Shown here: piece by piece, positions 9,793 through 26,578 of the stretch | How positions within the stretch are numbered: the stretch's first letter is position 1 | Layout of the letters: every line of letters begins with the position of its first letter | Source: Psammoneis japonica | Taxonomy: Eukaryota | NCBI GenBank assembly: GCA_008632985.1 | Contig: QPGO01000035.1 | Location: forward strand, 173,899 to 237,898 | Length of the DNA stretch: 64,000 nt | Direction: 5' to 3' | The notes under the pieces: model-generated | Database searches by the model: none | What the model was told of the DNA's origin: nothing | The model's input: the letters and a program-made list of their open reading frames with translations, nothing else | Position numbers and translations under genes: made by a program

Positions 9793-12700
9793 TTAATTGT
9801 AACCAACAACCGTACCAAAGTCACAGCGTGGCTGAAATTCATTTTGCACCACGCGAACGCCCTCTAGAGCTTCATAATCGCAAACAAATGTAACAGTGTT
9901 TTCCTCGTCTTCCTGCGTATTGGGTCGCACCATGCCGCAAGGATACGGAGGTGGATTTGTCAAGTCAATCGAGTAGCCATCTGTTCTGCCCTGATTGACG
10001 CAAGCAAAGACAGATTGCAGGATGGGCGCCTTGGAACTTCCGGCCCCACAAAAAATCACATGGCGAGTCTTGGTATTGAGAAACGGTAGTGTCAGAGTAA
10101 TTCTTTTCGGCGGTGGTTTCGGTGAGTCCTCGATGGGTGCTACCCATTTTGTATCTTCTTTCAAAAGGTCGTGATCAGGAAAGAGAGAGCAAGTGTGTCC
10201 ATCCGGTCCAAATCCAAGAACTGCTAAATCAAGACAGCCGCCAGATTTGGCAACAACAGTCTTTACACATGCTTCATAATCCGTAGCAATGTCGAGAGGC
10301 GAAGACAAGCCAGGCGTGATACCAAATATTTGTGAAGGCGGCACTGCTGTAATTTTTGAAAAGAGGAGTTTCACCAGTGCGCCCATGTTGGAATCCTTGT
10401 CTGTCAGCGGGACGCATCGTTCATCTGCCAAAATTACAAACCATTTCTCAAAGTGCGGATCAACGCCTTTGGACTCGAACGCCTCTTTGATGGTGGCTAA
10501 AAAGCCGGGTAATGAACCCCCACTCAATGCAATCGTAAAAGCACCATGCTTTCCAATGGCAGCCTCGCAGTGATCAACAATCGCTTCATTCAAACAAGTG
10601 CCAATTGTATCTTTGGACTTTGCCGGAATCAATTCCGCAACATAAGGTCCGAATTCAAAAGGGTCAACAACTGGATGAGATGGCTCCCAAAATGCCTCGG
10701 TAGCAGGCGTCATTACTGCCTCTTCCTTGGTTTTGTCGGACGTGACCATCACGTTCACGCCCTCTAGAGCGGCAACATCACAAACGAACGTAACAGAGTT
10801 ATCGCCCGCAGTACGCTTGTCGGGACGCACCATAGCGCAGGGATAGGGTGGAGGATTGGTTAACAAAGCATGATAACTCCTGTCTGCATCTTTGCCGACA
10901 TGAGCAAAGACTTTTTGTAATATCGGAGCCTTGGAACTTCCTGCTCCACAAAATATCACGTGGCGCGTCATGGTATTCAAAACGGGAAGGGTCAAAGTGA
11001 TTCGCTGCGGGGGTGGCTTTGGCGAGTCTTCGATCGCAGCTACCCACTTTGTTTCTTCGATTAAAAGCTCATGGCCAGGAAAGAGAGAGCAGGTATGACC
11101 ATCGGGGCCAAAACCCAAGACAGCTAGATCCAATTGGCCACCGGACTTAACCATGACCATTCTCACGTAGGGCTCATAACTATCCGCAACGGCGGTAGCT
11201 GCATCCGAGGTTTCTCGCTGAAGCACTTCTTCGTCAATCCCATAAACTTGCTCAGCCGGTATTGCAACTTTACTCAGCAAATGCTTTCGGAGCGCACCCA
11301 AATTAGAGTCTTCGTGTGTGCTGGGGACGCAACGCTCGTCCGCAAGTATCACGAACCACTTGTCAAAGTTGGGAACGATTTCTTTCGCCGTGAAGGCATT
11401 TTCAATCGTTGACAGGAATGCGGGTAACGACCCGCCGCTCAAAGCAATCGTGAAACAACCACGCTCCTTAATGGCGACTGCGCTACGTTCCACAATCGCC
11501 TCGTTCAAAACAATGTCCATGTGCTTTTTCGATCTAACGGGAAGAAGCGTGACCTCATACGGCTCCATCTTGACTTGGTTGCCGACACTTGCTCCGGCGC
11601 TGGTCACTGGCGTCTCTGTTTCTGATGACACCTCAGGAGCCGCTGGCGGTATATGCTGGTTGAGGTCATGTTCCTTACACATAGTAGTAGAAGTGCTTTC
11701 TGTGGGAAGATCGTTTTTATCCGTGTCCATGACGGGGGCTTTCGCCAGCACGTTGACTCCGTCGAGCGCGTCCTCGTCGCACACAAAGGTGAGCGCACCG
11801 TCTTTACCGCTATCAGGTCGTACCATGCCACAAGGAAGCGTCGCAGGATCGCAAAGTGTAGCTTGTAAGGTATGATCTTTGTCCTTGACAACATGCGAAA
11901 AGGTGGACTGAAGTACGGGAGCTTTGGAGCTTCCTGCACCACAAAACACAACCTGGCGTGTCTTGGTATTCAAAAAGGGAAAAGTCAGAGTGATGCGTTT
12001 CGCTGGAGGTTTCGGCGAATCTTCAATGGATGCTACCCACTTTGCATTCTCCGCGAGCAACACGTGATTTGGAAAAAGCGAGCAGGTATGACCATCCGGT
12101 CCAAAGCCTAAAAGCGCCAAATCGAGTTGGTCACCCGATCTGGCAATGACGGTTCGAACCTTTTCCTCGTAATCAGTGGCAACAGCTGCAGTACTCTGTG
12201 TTGCGAGAATGCTTCATCGATACCCATTATTTGATCATCTGGAATGTCTGGAATCTTTGAAAAGAGGTGCTGTCGCAAGGCGCCCATGTTGGAATCCTCG
12301 TGTGTTGCAGGCACACAGCGCTCATCGGCCAAGATTACATGCCACTTTTCAAATTGAGGATCAATATCCAACGCCACAAATGCTTCTGGTAAAGACGATA
12401 GAAACGATGGGATTGAACCCCCCGACAGAGCAACGGTAAACACGTCACGCTCCTCGATCGCTTGAGCACATTTCTTTGCAATGACTTTATTCAATACCCT
12501 CGGCAAGGTCTTTTTCGATTCGCAAGATACGACCTTTGCAATCAGAGGCGGTCTGTTAGTCCAGTCCTTCATAGCGTCAGTATCAACGATATAAGTCAAA
12601 GAGTTGGCGCGGACCATCCCGCACGGAAATGGGGTTTTCTCGACCAATTCCACATTGTACACATTCTCCTCTTGTTGGTCCTTTGTCATGGATGAAAAGA

Positions 12701-13361
12701 GTCTTTCTAATATAGGACCCTTGGAACTTCCTGCGCCACAAAAGATTACATGCCTTGTTTTGCTATTGAGGAGCGGCAATGTCAGAGTAATACGTTTTGG
12801 TGGAGGCTTTGGTGAATCGTCAATGGATGCTACCCATTTCGTATCCTCCTTCAAAAGTTCATGCCCCGGAAAGAGAGAGCAGGTGTGTCCATCAGGTCCA
12901 AATCCTAGTACCGCCAAGTCCAACTCTCCACCAGATCGTGACAAGACCTCCCGAACCACAGGCTCGTATTGTTGCGCGACATTGGCTGCGACCATCGAGG
13001 TATTCTCTCGCACAAGAACTTCTTCATCAATTCCATAAACTTGTTCTGGAGGAATGGGTACGTTACTCAGCAAGTGTTTCCGGAGCGCACCCAAATTCGA
13101 GTCGTCGTGTGAACTGGGGACACAACGCTCATCGGCGAGAAGAACATGCCATTTCTGAAACCGCGGTTCTACATTGTGTTTCCAAAACACTCGAGGAAGC
13201 GTCGCGAGGAACGATGGAAGCGATCCCCCGGATAACGCAATTGTGAAGATTCCACGTTCGTCTATTGACTCTGCACAACACTCCACAATACGAGAATTCA
13301 ACAGCTCGGACACATGGGCCTTGGATGGTGCCTCAATCAACTTGGCTGATGGATACGGCAT
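9793..13361 (-). CDS. PGL: 6-phosphogluconolactonase with four tandem catalytic domains; apparent one-base frameshift near 12210
   Basis: Four copies each of ALSGGS, LADERCVP..DSN, LGFGPDGHTCSLFP and DSPKPPP.RITLT. Domain 2 continues across a frame change (GIDEA/ILATQSTAAVATDYEEKV...LDLALLGFGPDGH). Confidence 0.88.
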
Positions 13362-13709
13362 TTTCGTCGAGTCGTATCTTGTGTTTGAAAATTGCTCCCT
13401 ATGTCCCGGAAGCTCCAAAGTGTGCCTTAACCTGCGATCAACCAAAACAACAGATGTAATAACTAGCCTTCTTTATATAAGTACCTGCCGCCGCCAAGTG
13501 GTTCTTTCCTCTCAAGGTGCCTTTTAGGCGGCAAAAGACGACAAGAAGACAACCTCAACTCGCTGTAATGTGACAACGGTATCTTTTATCTTTTTCTGGT
13601 GATTTTTCTGAAGCGCGCAATTCTGGTTTCTGGACTACTTCGACTGCTTTCAGAAAGCTTTATGTAGTAGAAAAATTCCTTCACGAGCAACCATCAACAC
13701 ATCCCAACC

Positions 13710-13791
13710 TTCGAATGGTCACGTGTTCGACTCACGTCTGGTGCTTGCCCGTCTGGCACTAGTAGCTCAGTGGTAGAGCGTTCGATTGCAG
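13710..13791 (+). tRNA. trnC-GCA: Circularly permuted tRNA-Cys(GCA): 3' half 13710-13745, 10-nt spacer, 5' half 13756-13791
   Basis: 5' half GCACTAG TA GCTC AGTGGTA GAGC G TTCGA TT GCA G; 3' half T TCGAA TGGTC ACGTG TTCGACT CACGT CTGGTGC T. Acceptor stem 7/7 (one G-U), D stem 4/4, anticodon stem 5/5, T stem 5/5, U73 discriminator; flanks form a BHB-like motif. Confidence 0.88.
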
Positions 13792-13799
13792 TGATGTTC

Positions 13800-13813
13800 T
13801 TTTTGATTTTTTT
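13800..13813 (+). terminator. Pol III oligo-T terminator of the permuted tRNA
   Basis: T5 at 13800-13804 and T7 at 13807-13813, just after the trailer. Confidence 0.65.
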
Positions 13814-13814
13814 G

Positions 13815-15710
13815 AATTCAACAGGCACAGTCTGCTGCGGTGGACTCGTCTCATGTTTCGCAGTCTTTCTGGAGTGCTGCACATCACAGCTGTAAGCAAC
13901 AGTGGCTTTTGTCAACCACTGTTTGAGCAGTGAGTGACAAGCTTCCACGATGTGCAACGAGTGCACCAACAAGCAACAACTTTGCTGGCTCTTGGTGTGT
14001 CAGCTGCATGATTTTTTGTGCACACTCATCTTTGATGTGCCAGCACACCACAAAAGCACATGCCCAACATGGCCTCCAACAAAGGAGAATCATTTTCTCA
14101 ATGAAAAACAAGCTCCTCCTCCTGGCGCAACAAGCACACGATGCCCCAGCTGCTTTCTCTTTTGCCTTGAGCTGACAAAAGCAGCGCCGCCGGATGTGTT
14201 CTCCTGGCCGCAGGTGGGGCTGATGTCACATCCATCAGAACACATCCAGCTCCACAGCAAAATTGTTGAGCAACAAACGTGTGGATGATTGCCAACAGAA
14301 AAAGAGGCAATTTTGCGACATGTGTTGGGTTCTCCAATGTGCCAAACACCTTGGCACTGACAAGACTCTGTTTCGTCTTGCCTGACCTGCAAAGCTCGAC
14401 GATGCAAGCTTTCGCTTTCGCTTCATCAGTGCGGATTTTTCTCATGAGCCAAAAAAGTCGAGATCGGCACTTTCAACGGCTGAGGTTGCAGCTGACCTCA
14501 CTTGCCGTTAAAAAACAACGGGCCGTTGGGAACGTGCCGATGCGCGCTGTGCGCACAGTCTTTGCCCAAAACTCCGTTGTGGAGAAAAAAGTGGGCGTCG
14601 TCTTCTCAGTTGACAGTCTGAGCCTGAAGGCAAGACCAGATGGCATGGACTGGCCCACTGTTGTTTGGTGATTGGGGTTTTGTGGCCCCTAAATTCAAAA
14701 AAACTCAAATGAGCACATTTTGTTTTTGGTTTGCCCAGGTGCATTCTTCGGCATCAAAGAATGCACCCAGCTTGCTTTTGTTCTCATGAGTGCAGAAAAC
14801 AGAAAGCCTTTTTGGCTTTGCAAAGCAAGGAGCATGAAACAAGCTGGCAGAAAATTGCACGCAGAAATGTGCGCGCGCATGACGTGCGGCACAATCCAAA
14901 AAACTCTTGGCACCACAATCAAGTTTGGGCGCAAGATCCCACATGGGCATTGCCATCAAAACTGTCACATTTTGCTTGGCACAAACAGGCACCTGTGGTT
15001 TCTCTCTTTTCCCCTCAGTTGGTGATTTCAAGTGAAAAGCTTTTGAACCCTCTTCTTGGGTCATTTCAACCCCCTGCTCTGAAACAGCCCTCAACACGTG
15101 AAGACAGTGCTGTGTTTGCCTGGGGCATGTGGGCATTGAAAGTGGACAGAGGAGAGGGCAATTCTTGCAAATGATGAACTTCAAGCATTTTGCTCATTGG
15201 CGGCGTGAACCAAGTTCTGTTGGCCATTGCCAGATGGGATGACGTGGGCGATGTGCCCCAGGCACACCCAGCACCCAGCATGAAAACATGCATGTGCACA
15301 GCTTGGGCCACACATTGAGCAAGATGACAAAAGAGCTGCCAGGTTTTTGTTGCTCAAGGGTTGGTTGAACAAGTTGCTTTTGATCTCTGGAGTGTGAGAA
15401 GTTTCAGCTGCTGGCCCGATTGGCTTGTGGAGATGTGGCATGTGGCTGGCATGTTTGTCAATTTTCTGGGTGACAGGTGTGGCTCCTGGGCAGCCTTTTT
15501 TTTAAGGGCAGCCTGCTGGTGGCAAAAGAGCTCGCCTCTGCCTCAGCAAGAAGTGCGTGATTGTGGTGTGCCAAATGATGCTGCGCTCCCAGCACCGTTT
15601 GCGTGCAACACTTTGTGTTGCATTGCTTCCAAAACATGCTGAGGTTGGAGCATGGAAAAAGTGGTGTCATGCACACCCGCACGATGGGAAGGACCACACC
15701 TCCACCTTGT
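13815..15710. mobile_element. TpA-depleted degenerate repeat/TE relic, family not identified
   Basis: Only a handful of TA in ~1.9 kb; Tyr-free Cys/His-rich ORFs in all frames; TA returns abruptly at ~15715. Confidence 0.55.
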
Positions 15711-21413: not shown

Positions 21414-23650
21414 TTACCAAAAGCCAAACATCTCGACGACGCCCCTTTCGTTGTTGTTCCGCGGGCCGCCACACGCAACTATATGTTGCGACGAGGCCGT
21501 TTTGGCAAACGAGACTGACTTGCCATACTCTTCGTGTGGATCATACCCATTGATGTCGGATCCCTTCTGAACCCAAGAGCTGTTACTAATAATATGTTCA
21601 AAGATCCTCACCTGGCCAGTGTTGTTGCCGTTGTCGTCGTTGAATCGTGCTCCCGCCGCCACAAATCGGGCATCAGGACTCAGCGAAACGGACCATCCAA
21701 ATTGATCACCTGCCTTCTTGCCGTGAATGAACTGCCCAATTTGTGTCCAATTTGAATCCGTATTATACTTGAAAACGGATACACTCCCTTGGCCAAACTT
21801 GCCCCACGCGGAGCCCACGGCCATTTTCAAACCACTGCTGTCGAGAGACACGGAAAACCCAAAACGTTCTTCAGCTGTGTCACCATACAAAGTCTTGCCC
21901 ATTGGGACCCAAGTGCGAGAAGTATTCTGATACTGATATACCGAAACCTGCCCTACAGAGCTGACGCCCACTGTATTGTTGAGGTCGCTTGAATTAACGA
22001 GGCTGTGCTGGAAGGCACCAACACTAACAATAGTCCCACTGTTACTAAGCGAAATCGACGCTCCGAACAAGTCATCAAATGCCTCTCCGGTAAGGTCTTG
22101 CCCAATTTGCTGCCAATCTGAGTTCCCTTCGCGTTTAAATACACGAACTGCTCCAGCACCAACCTCCCATTCTGGAATCCCTACTGCTACGACGTCGCCC
22201 GCCTCGGACAGCGAGACGGCTTCTCCAAACGAGTCGCCATTTCGAATTCCAACGATATCAGAGCCCAGTTGATTCCATTCTGAGGAAGAGGCATTGTACT
22301 GGTATACACCAACATAACCTGTACGATTCGGAAGGACCCCATAACGAGGAGGTGCTCCGACAGCCATAATGCTCCCATCACCATTGGCTGCCACCGACCA
22401 AGCAAAGCGAAAGTCGCCCCTTCCTCGAACTTTCTTTCCCATTGGTGTCCAAATTTGAGTAGTTGTATTCAAACGATACGCTGCCGCGCCCCCTTTGGAG
22501 CTTGCAGATCCAATCACCACCGTCGTTCCGTCTCGTGATAAAGAAAGAGTGTGACCAAGAAACTTCGCGATTCCTAAATCGGGTGACGCTGTTGCTTTGA
22601 GGGTTTGTCCAATCCGCTTCCAATTTGGTGGGGTTTCGGGAGTAGGCATGTTAGTTTCGGGAGGAAGTGTTTCTGGCGGAACAGTGACCGGAGGTGTGGA
22701 CACCGGAGGATTGGTTGTCTTATTATTGATCTCTCCAGTCGGATCGTCTTCTGTTGAGCTCGAACGTGTTGCTACAACAACCCCTGCAATCACAGCAGCC
22801 ATTATAGCAATCAACGCCAGAAGAATCAAGGCAATCAGGCGCCGACGTCTCCTGCTCTCTGAGGTATCGAGGGAGGCCGTTTTACTCTTTTGATTCGTTA
22901 CTTCTGCGTATGCTTGTGGTTGAAGAGCTGTCCTCATTTGTGTTTGGAGAGCATCAACTTGATCATGTAGAGGATCGTCTTGAACAACCACCTCAACTTC
23001 CGCCGTAATCGGCCCATCTCGAAATTGCTCTGTGATGTTATGTCTGGATCTTGCTCTGGTTTATCCCTCATGGAAGACTTGAAAGAGGGTGAAAGCTTTA
23101 GTTTGTCCTCATCAAAGCAATCGCCCGTTCTGCTCCCAGCCACCTCGTCATCATTGGTGACAGTAATGACACCAATCTCAGGAAATGGGGGGAGGCTTTG
23201 CAAATGCTCTTTGGCATCATCGTCGGAAGAAGAACCCATGGTCCGAGGCGAAGCATGTTCCTCGTCCCCAGCGTCCTCGCTACTTCGAAACGGCGGTAGA
23301 CATTTCAAAGCTTCTTCGTCATCGTCGTCAGTAGAAGGAAGCACAGAACGCGGCGAAGCAGGCTTCTCGTCTCCAGCACTTTGAAAGGGTTGTTGACCTT
23401 TCACAGCTTCTTTGCCATCAACCTCAGAGAAAGGAAGTACGGATCGAGGTGAAGCTGGTGCCTCATCTTTGGCGTCGTCTTCATTTTGGCCATGGTCTGA
23501 ATAGTCGTCCCTTTGTTGCCCGTCGCCGCTTGACTCCTTGCCGGAGTGCATGACACTGCCGGCAAGAGGCACCGGAGGCTTTCTTGTTCCAGCGTCATTT
23601 CCACAAACAAGATGGTCCAAATAGGGCTTTGGCTTCTTGTCAGAACTCAT
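21414..23650 (-). CDS. Type II membrane protein with extracellular FG-GAP-like beta-propeller (paralog 1); frame change at ~23010-23060
   Basis: Acidic N-terminus, RRRRR plus one TM helix, Pro/Thr stalk, then repeated W.Q.G..I.G....D.FG.SVSLS..G..VAVGA blades. The alternative frame EQFRDGPITAEV matches the paralog EEYEDVPIAAEI. Confidence 0.75.
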
Positions 23651-24534: not shown

Positions 24535-26578
24535 CTACCAAAACGAAAACACTTCGACATGTCCCTTTTCATTGTTGTATCGGGGACCGCCACAGGCAAC
24601 AAATGGCGAGGAGGAAGTCCCAGCGAATGAAACGGACTTGCCATACTCTTCGTGAGGATCATCGCCGTTTAAGTCCGAACCCTTCTGAAACCAGGCACTA
24701 TTACTCGGGTTGTATTCAAAGATTCTCACTTGACCAGTGTTGTTTCCGTTGTCGTCGTTGAAGCGAGCACCTGCGGCCAACATGTCTCCATCAGGGCTAA
24801 TCGACACGGACCACCCAAACAGGTCATACTCGGCTTTGCCATGAATAACTTGACCTTGCTGAGTCCAACTTTTTGTCGACGCATCGTAGAGGAAAGCAGT
24901 AACGCTCCCTTGACGGAGAGCCTTGCCCCACCTGGAGCCAACAGCCATGGTTGAGCCACTCTTGTCGAGCGACACTGAAAATCCAAAACGTTCTTCAACT
25001 GCATCTTGATCTCCGTACAACGGTTCGCCCAATGGAACCCAACTTTGTGTATCATACTGAAACTGAAACACGGAAACCTGACCCTGGTTTTCACCACCGT
25101 AGTCGTATGCACCAACAGTAACAATGGTGCCTGGTGCGCTAAGTGCTACTGAATAACCAAACATATCGTTACTCGATGCACCAACGCCTTTGAGAACTTG
25201 ACCCATTGGCTCCCAAACATCGCTAAAGTAGCGCCGATAGAGTCGAACGGATCCAGCACCTTGAAACCCCTCCTCGGTTGAACCGATTGCAATAATATCT
25301 CCCGCGTCGGAAAGAGCAAGAGATTCGCCAAAGTTGTCGCCAACCACACCTCCAAAAATAGTTTCACCCAGCTGATTCCACTGCGAGGAAGATTCATCGA
25401 ACTCGTATACTTTGACGAAACCAGTCATGTTTCCCATTTGACCATAATGAGGAGGTGCTCCGACCGCGACAATGTTGCCATCACCATTGGACGAAACCAC
25501 CCACCCAAATCGATATTGGTTCGTGTCTCGAATTTCTTGCCCAAGCGGCTTCCACACTTGTGAAGATTCGTCCAACCGAAACACGGCGACACCGCCAAGT
25601 TCGCCTGGAGCACCAACCGCAAGGGTTGTTCCATCTCGAGACATGGAAACCGTGTGACCGACAAAGTTTTGCGCATTCACTCCCTTCATTTCTTGTCCGA
25701 TTCGTTTCCACGATGGTGATCCACGGAGCGTTGGAGACATGGTTTCGATAGAATTGATAAGCGGGGGGAGGCTTTCCTCGGGAGGATCATCGTCAGAGGA
25801 TGAACCCGATCCTGTCCACCACTACAATTGCTGCAACCACTCCAGCCAAGACAGCAAGCAATACCAGAAGAATCACAACAAGCCTTCGACGCTTCCGTGC
25901 TTCCTGGGAGGCATTAAGCTCGGGTGATACTCCTGAATCATCCTCAGCTGTTACGGCTCTTTTTTCTGGCGAGAGCATCGACGTCATTTGCGCCTGAAGT
26001 GCATCGACCTGCGCCTGCAACGTATCATTTGGGGCAATCTCCGCTGCAATCGGAACATCTTCATATTCCTCGGGTATAGAATTCTGGTTTCGGCTGACTG
26101 GGTGCTGTTCTCGTTGTTGCTCCCAGTCTTCACTTTGTTGGAGGGATGGAATCGTCGACTGATCGTCTCCCTCGTAGTACTGGCGACTTCGATGCACAAC
26201 CTCCTGTGTTTCCATGGATACAGCAAACGCTCCAATCTGAGGAGCAGGTGGGTGGACCTTCATTGCAGCATGAGCCGTAGAGGCAGAAGAGACAGATCTA
26301 GGAGGAGCCGGCTTGATTATTTCATCATCATCTTCAAACTTGTTCCGGTGCGCCTTTCTCTGCTGCAATGCATAATGCCGTTTCTTCTCGGGATCGATCC
26401 ACTTGGGAGACTCAAAGCTTCGCGACACGTGGCTGACTTGTGGTTTTGATGTTCCTTCGTCGTCTTCATAGCGGTGGTTGATGTGAGCATCTGGCATGGA
26501 GGGAGGCTTCGTTGCTCCTTCGTCGTCTTCATGACGGGCGTTGCTTCCCTCGTAGTATGCTTTCTTTTCGGGGTTCAT
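24535..26578 (-). CDS. Type II membrane FG-GAP-like beta-propeller protein (paralog 2); frame change near 25815
   Basis: Same architecture as paralog 1, with a near-identical C-terminus (GARFNDDNGNNTGQVRIFE...DPHEEYGKSVSFA). After the TM helix the frame continues as TGSGSSSDDDPPEESLPP into ORF 24535-25740. Confidence 0.78.

Follow-up and report, generated by a model that had tools for sequence, protein, structure and literature searches.

Can a tRNA gene in a diatom nucleus carry its two halves in reverse order and still give rise to a working tRNA? This question is raised by a short locus in Psammoneis japonica (contig QPGO01000035.1 of GenBank assembly GCA_008632985.1). It lies within a stretch of 64,000 nucleotides (nt; contig positions 173,899 to 237,898, forward strand) that we analyzed as a whole and call the window; positions below are counted from its first letter. 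A preliminary description had taken the locus for a circularly permuted gene for tRNA-Cys with the anticodon GCA. We find that the permuted gene is real and, judged from its sequence and that of its relatives, almost certainly functional. Our preferred reading, to which we assign a probability of roughly 0.87, is that positions 13698-13804 are a functional circularly permuted nuclear diatom gene for tRNA-Cys(GCA) of type II, with the junction between tRNA nucleotides 37 and 38. Three observations bear out the preliminary reading: the rejoined halves form a cloverleaf that is called as tRNA-Cys, the splice-site register at the junction is unlikely by chance, and the arrangement is conserved and covaries in a family of related loci.

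Structure of the permuted gene

The locus is ordered 3' half, 10-nt spacer, 5' half, all on a single strand. Its parts and flanking elements, which include a bulge-helix-bulge (BHB) at the junction and a candidate terminator for RNA polymerase III (Pol III), are as follows.

13659-13679, plus strand: candidate promoter, an AT-rich stretch with a TATA-like motif (TTTATGTAG, 13659-13667, at -51 from the 3' half); role predicted
13699-13703, plus strand: ACATC, leader strand of the outer helix, pairs with 13793-13797
13704-13707, plus strand: CCAA, leader strand of the central helix, 3 of 4 positions paired with U32 U33 G34 C35 of the 4-bp BHB helix
13708-13709, plus strand: two leader bases of a 3-nt bulge and the predicted 3' cleavage site, with a cut after 13709; register read from the sequence, cleavage predicted from the BHB rule
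13710-13745, plus strand: 3' half of tRNA-Cys, nt 38-73 (3' anticodon-stem strand, variable loop, T arm with the B box, 3' acceptor strand, U73); from the sequence, ARAGORN and a covariance model
13746-13755, plus strand: 10-nt intervening sequence from U73 to G1, the loop that closes the acceptor stem; removal by RNase Z and RNase P predicted
13756-13791, plus strand: 5' half of tRNA-Cys, nt 1-37 (5' acceptor strand, D arm with the A box, 5' anticodon-stem strand); from the sequence, ARAGORN and a covariance model
13788-13790, plus strand: anticodon GCA, within the 5' half
13792-13797, plus strand: trailer, with 13792 as the third base of the 5'-site bulge and GATGT (13793-13797) as a strand of the outer helix; predicted cut after 13791
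13800-13813, plus strand: oligo-T runs of the Pol III terminator type, T5 at 13800-13804 and T7 at 13807-13813, read from the sequence

Placing the 5' half before the 3' half restores a full cloverleaf, and every element was found at the position given in the preliminary description. The acceptor stem (GCACTAG/CTGGTGC) has 7 bp, one of them a G-U pair, the D stem (GCTC/GAGC) has 4 bp, and the anticodon stem (TTCGA/TCGAA) and T stem (ACGTG/CACGT) have 5 bp each. The T loop is TTCGACT and the discriminator base is U73. All of the universal tRNA positions are present (U8, A14, G18 G19, U33, G53 U54 U55 C56 G57 A58, C61 and G15:C48). When 13756-13791 was joined by script to 13710-13745, the check that had been proposed, ARAGORN called tRNA-Cys(gca) of 72 nt.

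The expectation that standard tRNA scans would overlook this gene was correct. ARAGORN found 0 tRNA genes in the unjoined 64-kb window, and 0 Rfam families reached their gathering score there. The ordinary-tRNA model RF00005 gave only 14.8 bits, on the 5' half plus the trailer, and the locus has no colinear cloverleaf. Scanning doubled 150-nt windows on both strands, a procedure that makes permuted genes look intron-containing, returned the tRNA-Cys locus as the sole match in the 64 kb and 0 matches in three Markov-shuffled controls. The anticodon-arm motif of the permuted gene occurs a single time in the window.

The flanks of the two halves form the BHB-like junction that had been claimed for 37/38, in exact register. 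In the central helix, U32 pairs with A13707, U33 with A13706 and G34 with C13705, and C35 is mismatched with C13704. Together with two 3-nt bulges (A36 G37 U13792 and C13708 C13709 U38), these pairs give a strict helix-bulge-helix-bulge-helix register at 37/38, in which each predicted cut falls after the second base of a bulge. For comparison, among 200,000 draws of random flanks from the window, 0.19% (frequency 0.0019) had 3 or more of the 4 central pairs together with 5 bp or more in the outer helix, in the exact register. The minimum free energy fold of 13690-13806 includes the outer helix, the anticodon stem, the T arm and the spacer-closed acceptor stem. The T5 run begins 8 nt past nt 37, and T runs are absent from the spacer. 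Four features expected of a permuted tRNA gene are present: the 3' half before the 5' half, a canonical cloverleaf, a BHB at the junction, and a downstream T stretch with no terminator in the spacer.

Relatives in diatoms and metagenomes

The window is diatom nuclear DNA, as indicated by its open reading frame (ORF) for glutamyl-tRNA synthetase (GluRS). Among the best 120 relatives of this ORF, all named organisms are diatoms, with identities of 66-72% and genera that include Chaetoceros, Thalassiosira, Cyclotella, Nitzschia, Epithemia, Eucampia and Pseudo-nitzschia; the top unnamed relative is 77% identical. Because every named relative is a diatom, the earlier characterization of the genome as diatom-like stands.

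Related loci were found in metagenome contigs of the Joint Genome Institute (JGI) by one pattern scan (T loop, 22-52 free bases, D arm, GCA anticodon), with 600-nt flanks. The scan gave at least 124 loci. Counting the window, at least 139 matches fit the pattern, and at least 58 of them have 7/7 acceptor pairs across a short spacer. At least 54 of the 58 have an anticodon stem with at least 4/5 pairs as well, and all of these (54/54) were called tRNA-Cys(gca) after joining. They correspond to at least 48 unique precursors, that is, the window and at least 47 others of the same layout. All other pattern matches come from arrays of ordinary tRNA genes, where ARAGORN detects tRNA-Cys in colinear order.

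We define a diatom-type family by the motif at nt 38-48 and the ..TTGCAG ending, so that its members agree with the window's gene in this motif and in the anticodon arm; 39 of the 48 unique precursors belong to it (here and below, counts of unique precursors refer to the matches listed). Mature sequences within the family are 74-97% identical. Our alignment contains 34 unique family precursors, the window included, with 5 of the 39 dropped as incomplete or duplicate. Across the 48 unique precursors, a run of at least four T residues usually begins 0-14 nt past nt 37. One locus that passed the filter and is counted among the 48 (L115) is a false positive, a tandem pair of ordinary genes. Three GC-rich oddities (L058, L053 and L097) were excluded from the family.

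Genes that flank two of the relatives place them in other diatom lineages than the window, and so the permuted arrangement is present in at least three diatom lineages by this sequence-based assignment. An aldehyde dehydrogenase fragment beside the first (L015) has 83% identity with a Stephanodiscus protein and 74-80% with proteins of Thalassiosira. A homoserine dehydrogenase fragment beside the second (L012) has named matches in diatoms only, from Chaetoceros (62%) down to Phaeodactylum (53%). Comparing the window's neighboring genes with the metagenome loci (tblastn and blastn, 600-nt flanks) revealed no similarity between flanks, the matches obtained being artefacts of the tRNA sequence itself.

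One 3.8-kb metagenome contig (L023:383-816 and L024) contains at least three tandem permuted tRNA-Cys copies, about 330 nt apart and with slightly different leaders. ARAGORN misreads adjoining copies on this contig as a "tRNA-Phe" with a 231-319-nt intron.

Covariation and conservation

The permuted layout is conserved in this family with compensatory changes. In the alignment of 34 precursors, 89.8% of cells are paired compared to 74.8% after shuffling, and 0 of 500 shuffles reach any of five measures. Sliding the partners by 1-3 columns lowers pairing to 27-45%. The T stem, which was not filtered for, is 99.4% paired, and 4/5 of its pairs have changed on both sides. Changes on both sides are also seen in 2/5 pairs of the anticodon stem, which spans the permutation, and in 7/7 pairs of the acceptor stem, which spans the spacer and for which pairing was a selection criterion.

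At the junction, the central BHB helix is 91.9% paired, and its changes are all pair-preserving and all on the leader side (variants GCAA, GCAG, GCGA, GTAA and GTGA). The first pair of the outer helix is formed in 29/34 precursors, 11 of them with both sides changed. The preliminary description had proposed a search of other diatoms for the same arrangement with compensatory changes in the outer helix; the layout does recur and the first outer pair covaries, but the remaining outer pairs do not follow. Long outer helices mostly accompany a weaker central helix, as in the window (3/4 central pairs, 5 bp in the outer helix), L108 (3/4, 9 bp) and L003/L120 (2/4, 7 bp), although L084 combines a full central helix with a 7-bp outer helix.

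Several positions that neither the pattern nor the filter had fixed are identical in 34/34 precursors, namely U38, the variable loop, U73, G26, U32 and G37. In spacer and leader columns the majority fraction is near 0.4 (0.42 in the spacer), and spacers vary in length from 5 to 28 nt. A covariance model built from 33 relatives, with the window left out, has a single match in the window, at 13698-13803, which is full length and scores 96.1 bits (E about 1e-27).

Alternative explanations and points against

One alternative is that the locus is a non-functional relic: an old tandem duplication would have left its inner halves, which are not expressed or not matured, while a conventional tRNA-Cys elsewhere does the work. 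This would fit the proposed origin of permuted genes by tandem duplication and subsequent loss of the outer halves (Soma 2014, PMC3978253, in its account of origins), as well as the one mismatch in the window's central helix. However, the flanks of the gene keep no trace of the lost outer halves (identities of 3/36 and 9/36), and 33 further unique precursors of the family, two other diatom lineages included, have the same layout with compensatory changes; both findings speak against the truncated tandem copies that had been named as a possible refutation. Moreover, unpaired tRNA positions including U73 are invariant while spacers drift, and the BHB strand and the terminator are conserved. A conventional tRNA-Cys of Phaeodactylum is also missing from two papers, which did not find it or did not annotate it: a 2020 survey (PMC7678280) lists P. 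tricornutum without both Cys anticodons, its tRNA-Cys being described as "lost", and a 2026 study left out the cysteine tRNA genes of this species as not confidently annotatable. We consider a relic improbable.

We regard as still less probable that the transcript is a Y RNA-like noncoding RNA that is never rejoined, in which a permuted tRNA-like body with a closing stem mimics a tRNA and takes no part in decoding. The best Rfam match at the E-value threshold is indeed the bacterial Y RNA-like family YrlA (RF02553), at 13694-13800 with 38.5 bits and an E-value of 9e-7. It is the best match because both share the order of T arm, acceptor-like hairpin and D arm inside a terminal stem. Nevertheless, 38.5 bits compares with a gathering score of 69 for YrlA, and the locus does not qualify for the family; its score derives from the T arm, acceptor hairpin and D arm, whereas the stem module aligns with gaps and non-pairs. 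The Y RNA model does not predict a complete GCA anticodon arm in two halves split exactly at 37/38, U73, or ends in the exact splice register, and the window, unlike YrlA, belongs to a eukaryotic nuclear genome.

Least probable of all, and by our estimate a very slight risk, is an assembly artefact or a chance arrangement. Three public DNA runs from one sample cover the region. A 765-nt short-read contig from these data (single-copy depth of 55, neighbors about 57) is colinear with 13546-14309 and crosses the locus with zero joints. It has 7 differences from the window, of which just one, T>C at 13752 in the spacer, lies within the gene; the absence of all 7 from the 72 exonic bases lacks statistical significance and was given no weight. 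The support comes from assembled contigs, and the run may be the source of the window assembly itself, so that the contig shows just no sign of the mis-assembly that the preliminary description had raised as a possible refutation. Independent environmental contigs have the same layout, and chance is further opposed by the 0 matches in shuffled controls and by the E-value of the covariance model.

Other observations weigh against a functional permuted gene, or limit how far the evidence for it reaches. The C-C mismatch in the window's central helix contrasts with 4/4 pairs in 32 of the 39 family precursors among the matches listed, the outer helix past its first pair is only about 50% paired in relatives, which is near chance, and the folding energy of the precursor is not below that of shuffled sequences (z -0.08). 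The TATA-like motif of the window (TTTATGTAG) is weak, and the motif list was extended post hoc. The scan pattern fixed the T loop, D arm and anticodon, and the filter demanded 7/7 acceptor pairs and at least 4/5 anticodon-stem pairs; conservation of those parts of the tRNA is therefore partly built in. A taxon could be assigned for the contigs of just two relatives (L015 and L012). Our survey of tRNA-Cys genes covered the 64-kb window, and a conventional copy may be present elsewhere in the genome. Finally, a permuted gene may explain both of the Phaeodactylum tRNA-Cys gaps, but this link is indirect.

Predicted maturation and transcription

A functional permuted gene would probably mature by the steps described for Cyanidioschyzon merolae, on which the following outline is modeled (Soma 2014, PMC3978253, in its description of this pathway). 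Pol III would start at about 13685-13695, directed by the upstream AT-rich, TATA-like stretch, and would stop in the T5 run (about 13804). The tRNA splicing endonuclease would cut after 13709 and after 13791, and tRNA ligase would join G37 to U38, giving an 82-nt circle. RNase P would then cut the circle before G1 (13756) and RNase Z after U73 (13745), which would release the 10-nt spacer, and CCA would be added to the 3' end.

Transcription poses a particular problem for such a gene. As the preliminary description pointed out, the A and B boxes are reversed: the B box, in the 3' half, precedes the A box, in the 5' half, and the usual TFIIIC geometry would therefore be inapplicable (Soma 2014, section 5, PMC3978253). 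The AT-rich stretch upstream, placed at about 13658-13678 in that description, is a plausible promoter by sequence comparison. In 24 non-redundant stand-alone relatives, a TATA-like motif occurs at -62 to -32 in 16/24, compared to 0-6/24 in control windows further upstream, with a motif list that is partly post hoc, the TATGTA variant having joined it after the data were seen. AT content at -62 to -32 in the same 24 relatives is 0.75, compared to 0.56-0.63 in controls. The promoter proposal thus gains from the motifs that relatives carry at the same distance and loses from the weakness of the window's own. In a passage on Phaeodactylum tRNA genes, the authors of PlantRNA describe an AT-rich region at -30 to -40 (PMC3531208).

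A second route to transcription is suggested by relatives that lie behind another tRNA gene. Seven of the 48 unique precursors among the matches listed have an ordinary tRNA gene on the same strand, with its end 6-10 nt ahead of the 3' half: tRNA-Ala(UGC) in L015, L038, L046, L055 and L122, tRNA-Leu(CAA) in L076, and tRNA-Gly(UCC) in L060. The leader of L074 also resembles a tRNA 3' end. The simplest interpretation of these copies would be a dicistronic transcript driven by the internal promoter of the upstream gene. Stand-alone permuted copies comprise the window and about 30 others among the matches listed.

In L076 (positions 1-253), an environmental contig of the diatom-type family, tRNA-Ala(UGC), tRNA-Leu(CAA) and the permuted tRNA-Cys stand head to tail, 2-7 nt apart, possibly as a Pol III tricistronic unit. 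Five other loci (L009, L010, L016, L045 and L104; for example L009:549-702) have tRNA-Ala(UGC) and tRNA-Cys(GCA) in ordinary order, 7-9 nt apart and followed by a T run. The tRNA-Cys of this group and the mature tRNA-Cys encoded by the permuted L003/L120 genes have 93% identity, and the 3' end of the group's tRNA-Ala matches that of the tRNA-Ala preceding the permuted copies in L046 and L055. The ordinary-order Ala-Cys pair may represent the ancestral layout. The flanks of the L009-type contigs contain no ORF suitable for placing them taxonomically.

Comparison with known permuted tRNA genes

The design itself has precedents. Table 1 of Soma 2014 (PMC3978253), citing Maruyama et al. 2010, lists permuted tRNA-Cys(GCA) genes of type II in Ostreococcus lucimarinus, O. 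tauri and Micromonas pusilla. These prasinophyte genes, as presented in that review, resemble the diatom gene in isoacceptor, 37/38 junction, lack of an intron, downstream T stretch and AT-rich upstream region; their intervening sequences are 26, 38 and 12 bp long, compared to 10 bp in the window. Prasinophytes are green algae, whereas the host of the window is a diatom, a stramenopile with a red-derived secondary plastid. Four GC-rich metagenome loci, whose spacers are 26 or 12 nt long, may correspond to the published genes of Ostreococcus and Micromonas, and the window's mature tRNA is 65-69% identical to these prasinophyte-like loci, compared to 74-97% within the diatom-type family. The position of some diatom-type members 6-10 nt behind a tRNA-Ala gene is a further difference from the prasinophyte genes.

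The same review (PMC3978253) allows comparison with two more distant systems. C. merolae (Soma et al. 2007, as covered by the review) shares with the window the order of 3' half, spacer and 5' half, a BHB formed from the transcript ends, a downstream T stretch and an upstream TATA-like element, for which the window has a weak candidate. Its 11 permuted genes, as listed there, use four junction positions and include none for tRNA-Cys, and its maturation through a circular RNA was shown experimentally, whereas the diatom pathway is proposed by analogy. Thermofilum pendens has permuted genes for tRNA-iMet and tRNA-Tyr (Chan, Cozen and Lowe 2011, as reported in the review), which are likewise single-copy genes for essential tRNAs; in contrast to the diatom window, this is an archaeon in which the junction lies at 59/60 and additional introns are present.

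The statement in the preliminary description that no diatom case was known agrees with our literature search, which found no paper that ties permuted tRNA genes to diatoms or stramenopiles; the survey of Maruyama et al. 2010 entered it through the Soma 2014 review. In the lists of that review (PMC3978253), 34 permuted tRNA genes come from six small algae and one archaeon, and in the passages on eukaryotes of a 2026 review (PMC13578239) and of PlantRNA 2.0, they are named only in red algae, O. tauri and B. natans. The claim of novelty therefore needs to be divided. The preliminary description omitted the published prasinophyte tRNA-Cys(GCA) with a 37/38 junction, and since a permuted Cys(GCA) gene of type II is on record for three prasinophytes, both the design and the isoacceptor were known; what appears to be new is the diatom lineage.

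Implications for cysteine decoding in diatoms

A broader proposal, to which we give slightly less than even odds, joins several claims: that the permuted gene is the only nuclear tRNA-Cys of diatoms generally, Phaeodactylum included, and that it has a single origin, close to the root of the diatoms, within an ancestral tRNA-Ala(UGC)-tRNA-Cys dicistron of which the normal order survives in the L009 group. If this is true, all cytosolic cysteine decoding in diatoms would hang on circularization by the tRNA splicing machinery, with transcription proceeding either by read-through from a tRNA gene upstream or from a TATA-like promoter gained at a later stage. An essential tRNA would then require both splicing endonuclease and ligase for circularization, wherever the permuted gene is the sole source of tRNA-Cys.

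The finding would also bring in a lineage whose evolutionary history differs from that of the known carriers of permuted tRNA genes and which is large, ecologically dominant and accessible to genetic work, and it offers a testable answer to the current gap in tRNA-Cys annotation in P. tricornutum. Relatives located behind another tRNA gene suggest a simple way of transcribing a gene despite its reversed A and B boxes. Annotation pipelines for diatoms would require a model for permuted tRNAs.

Neighboring genes and other observations

Genes in the 64-kb window include a family C G-protein-coupled receptor, ankyrin repeats, GluRS and repeated 6-phosphogluconolactonase domains. The last of these lie at 9793-13445 on the minus strand, directly upstream of the tRNA gene, in two abutting ORFs of 775 and 445 amino acids with three and two Glucosamine_iso/6-phosphogluconolactonase domains, respectively; the pair looks like one gene with about five tandem domain copies. 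Two neighboring paralogous ORFs at 21414-22991 and 24535-25740, also on the minus strand, have FG-GAP_2 repeats and a weak PFU match. At 14266-14347, contig depth in the public run climbs within roughly 40-80 nt from about 55 to 50,000-95,000, and loose ends are numerous at 14279-14322; this suggests either a short element present in very many copies or a stretch that also occurs in some other, abundant source.

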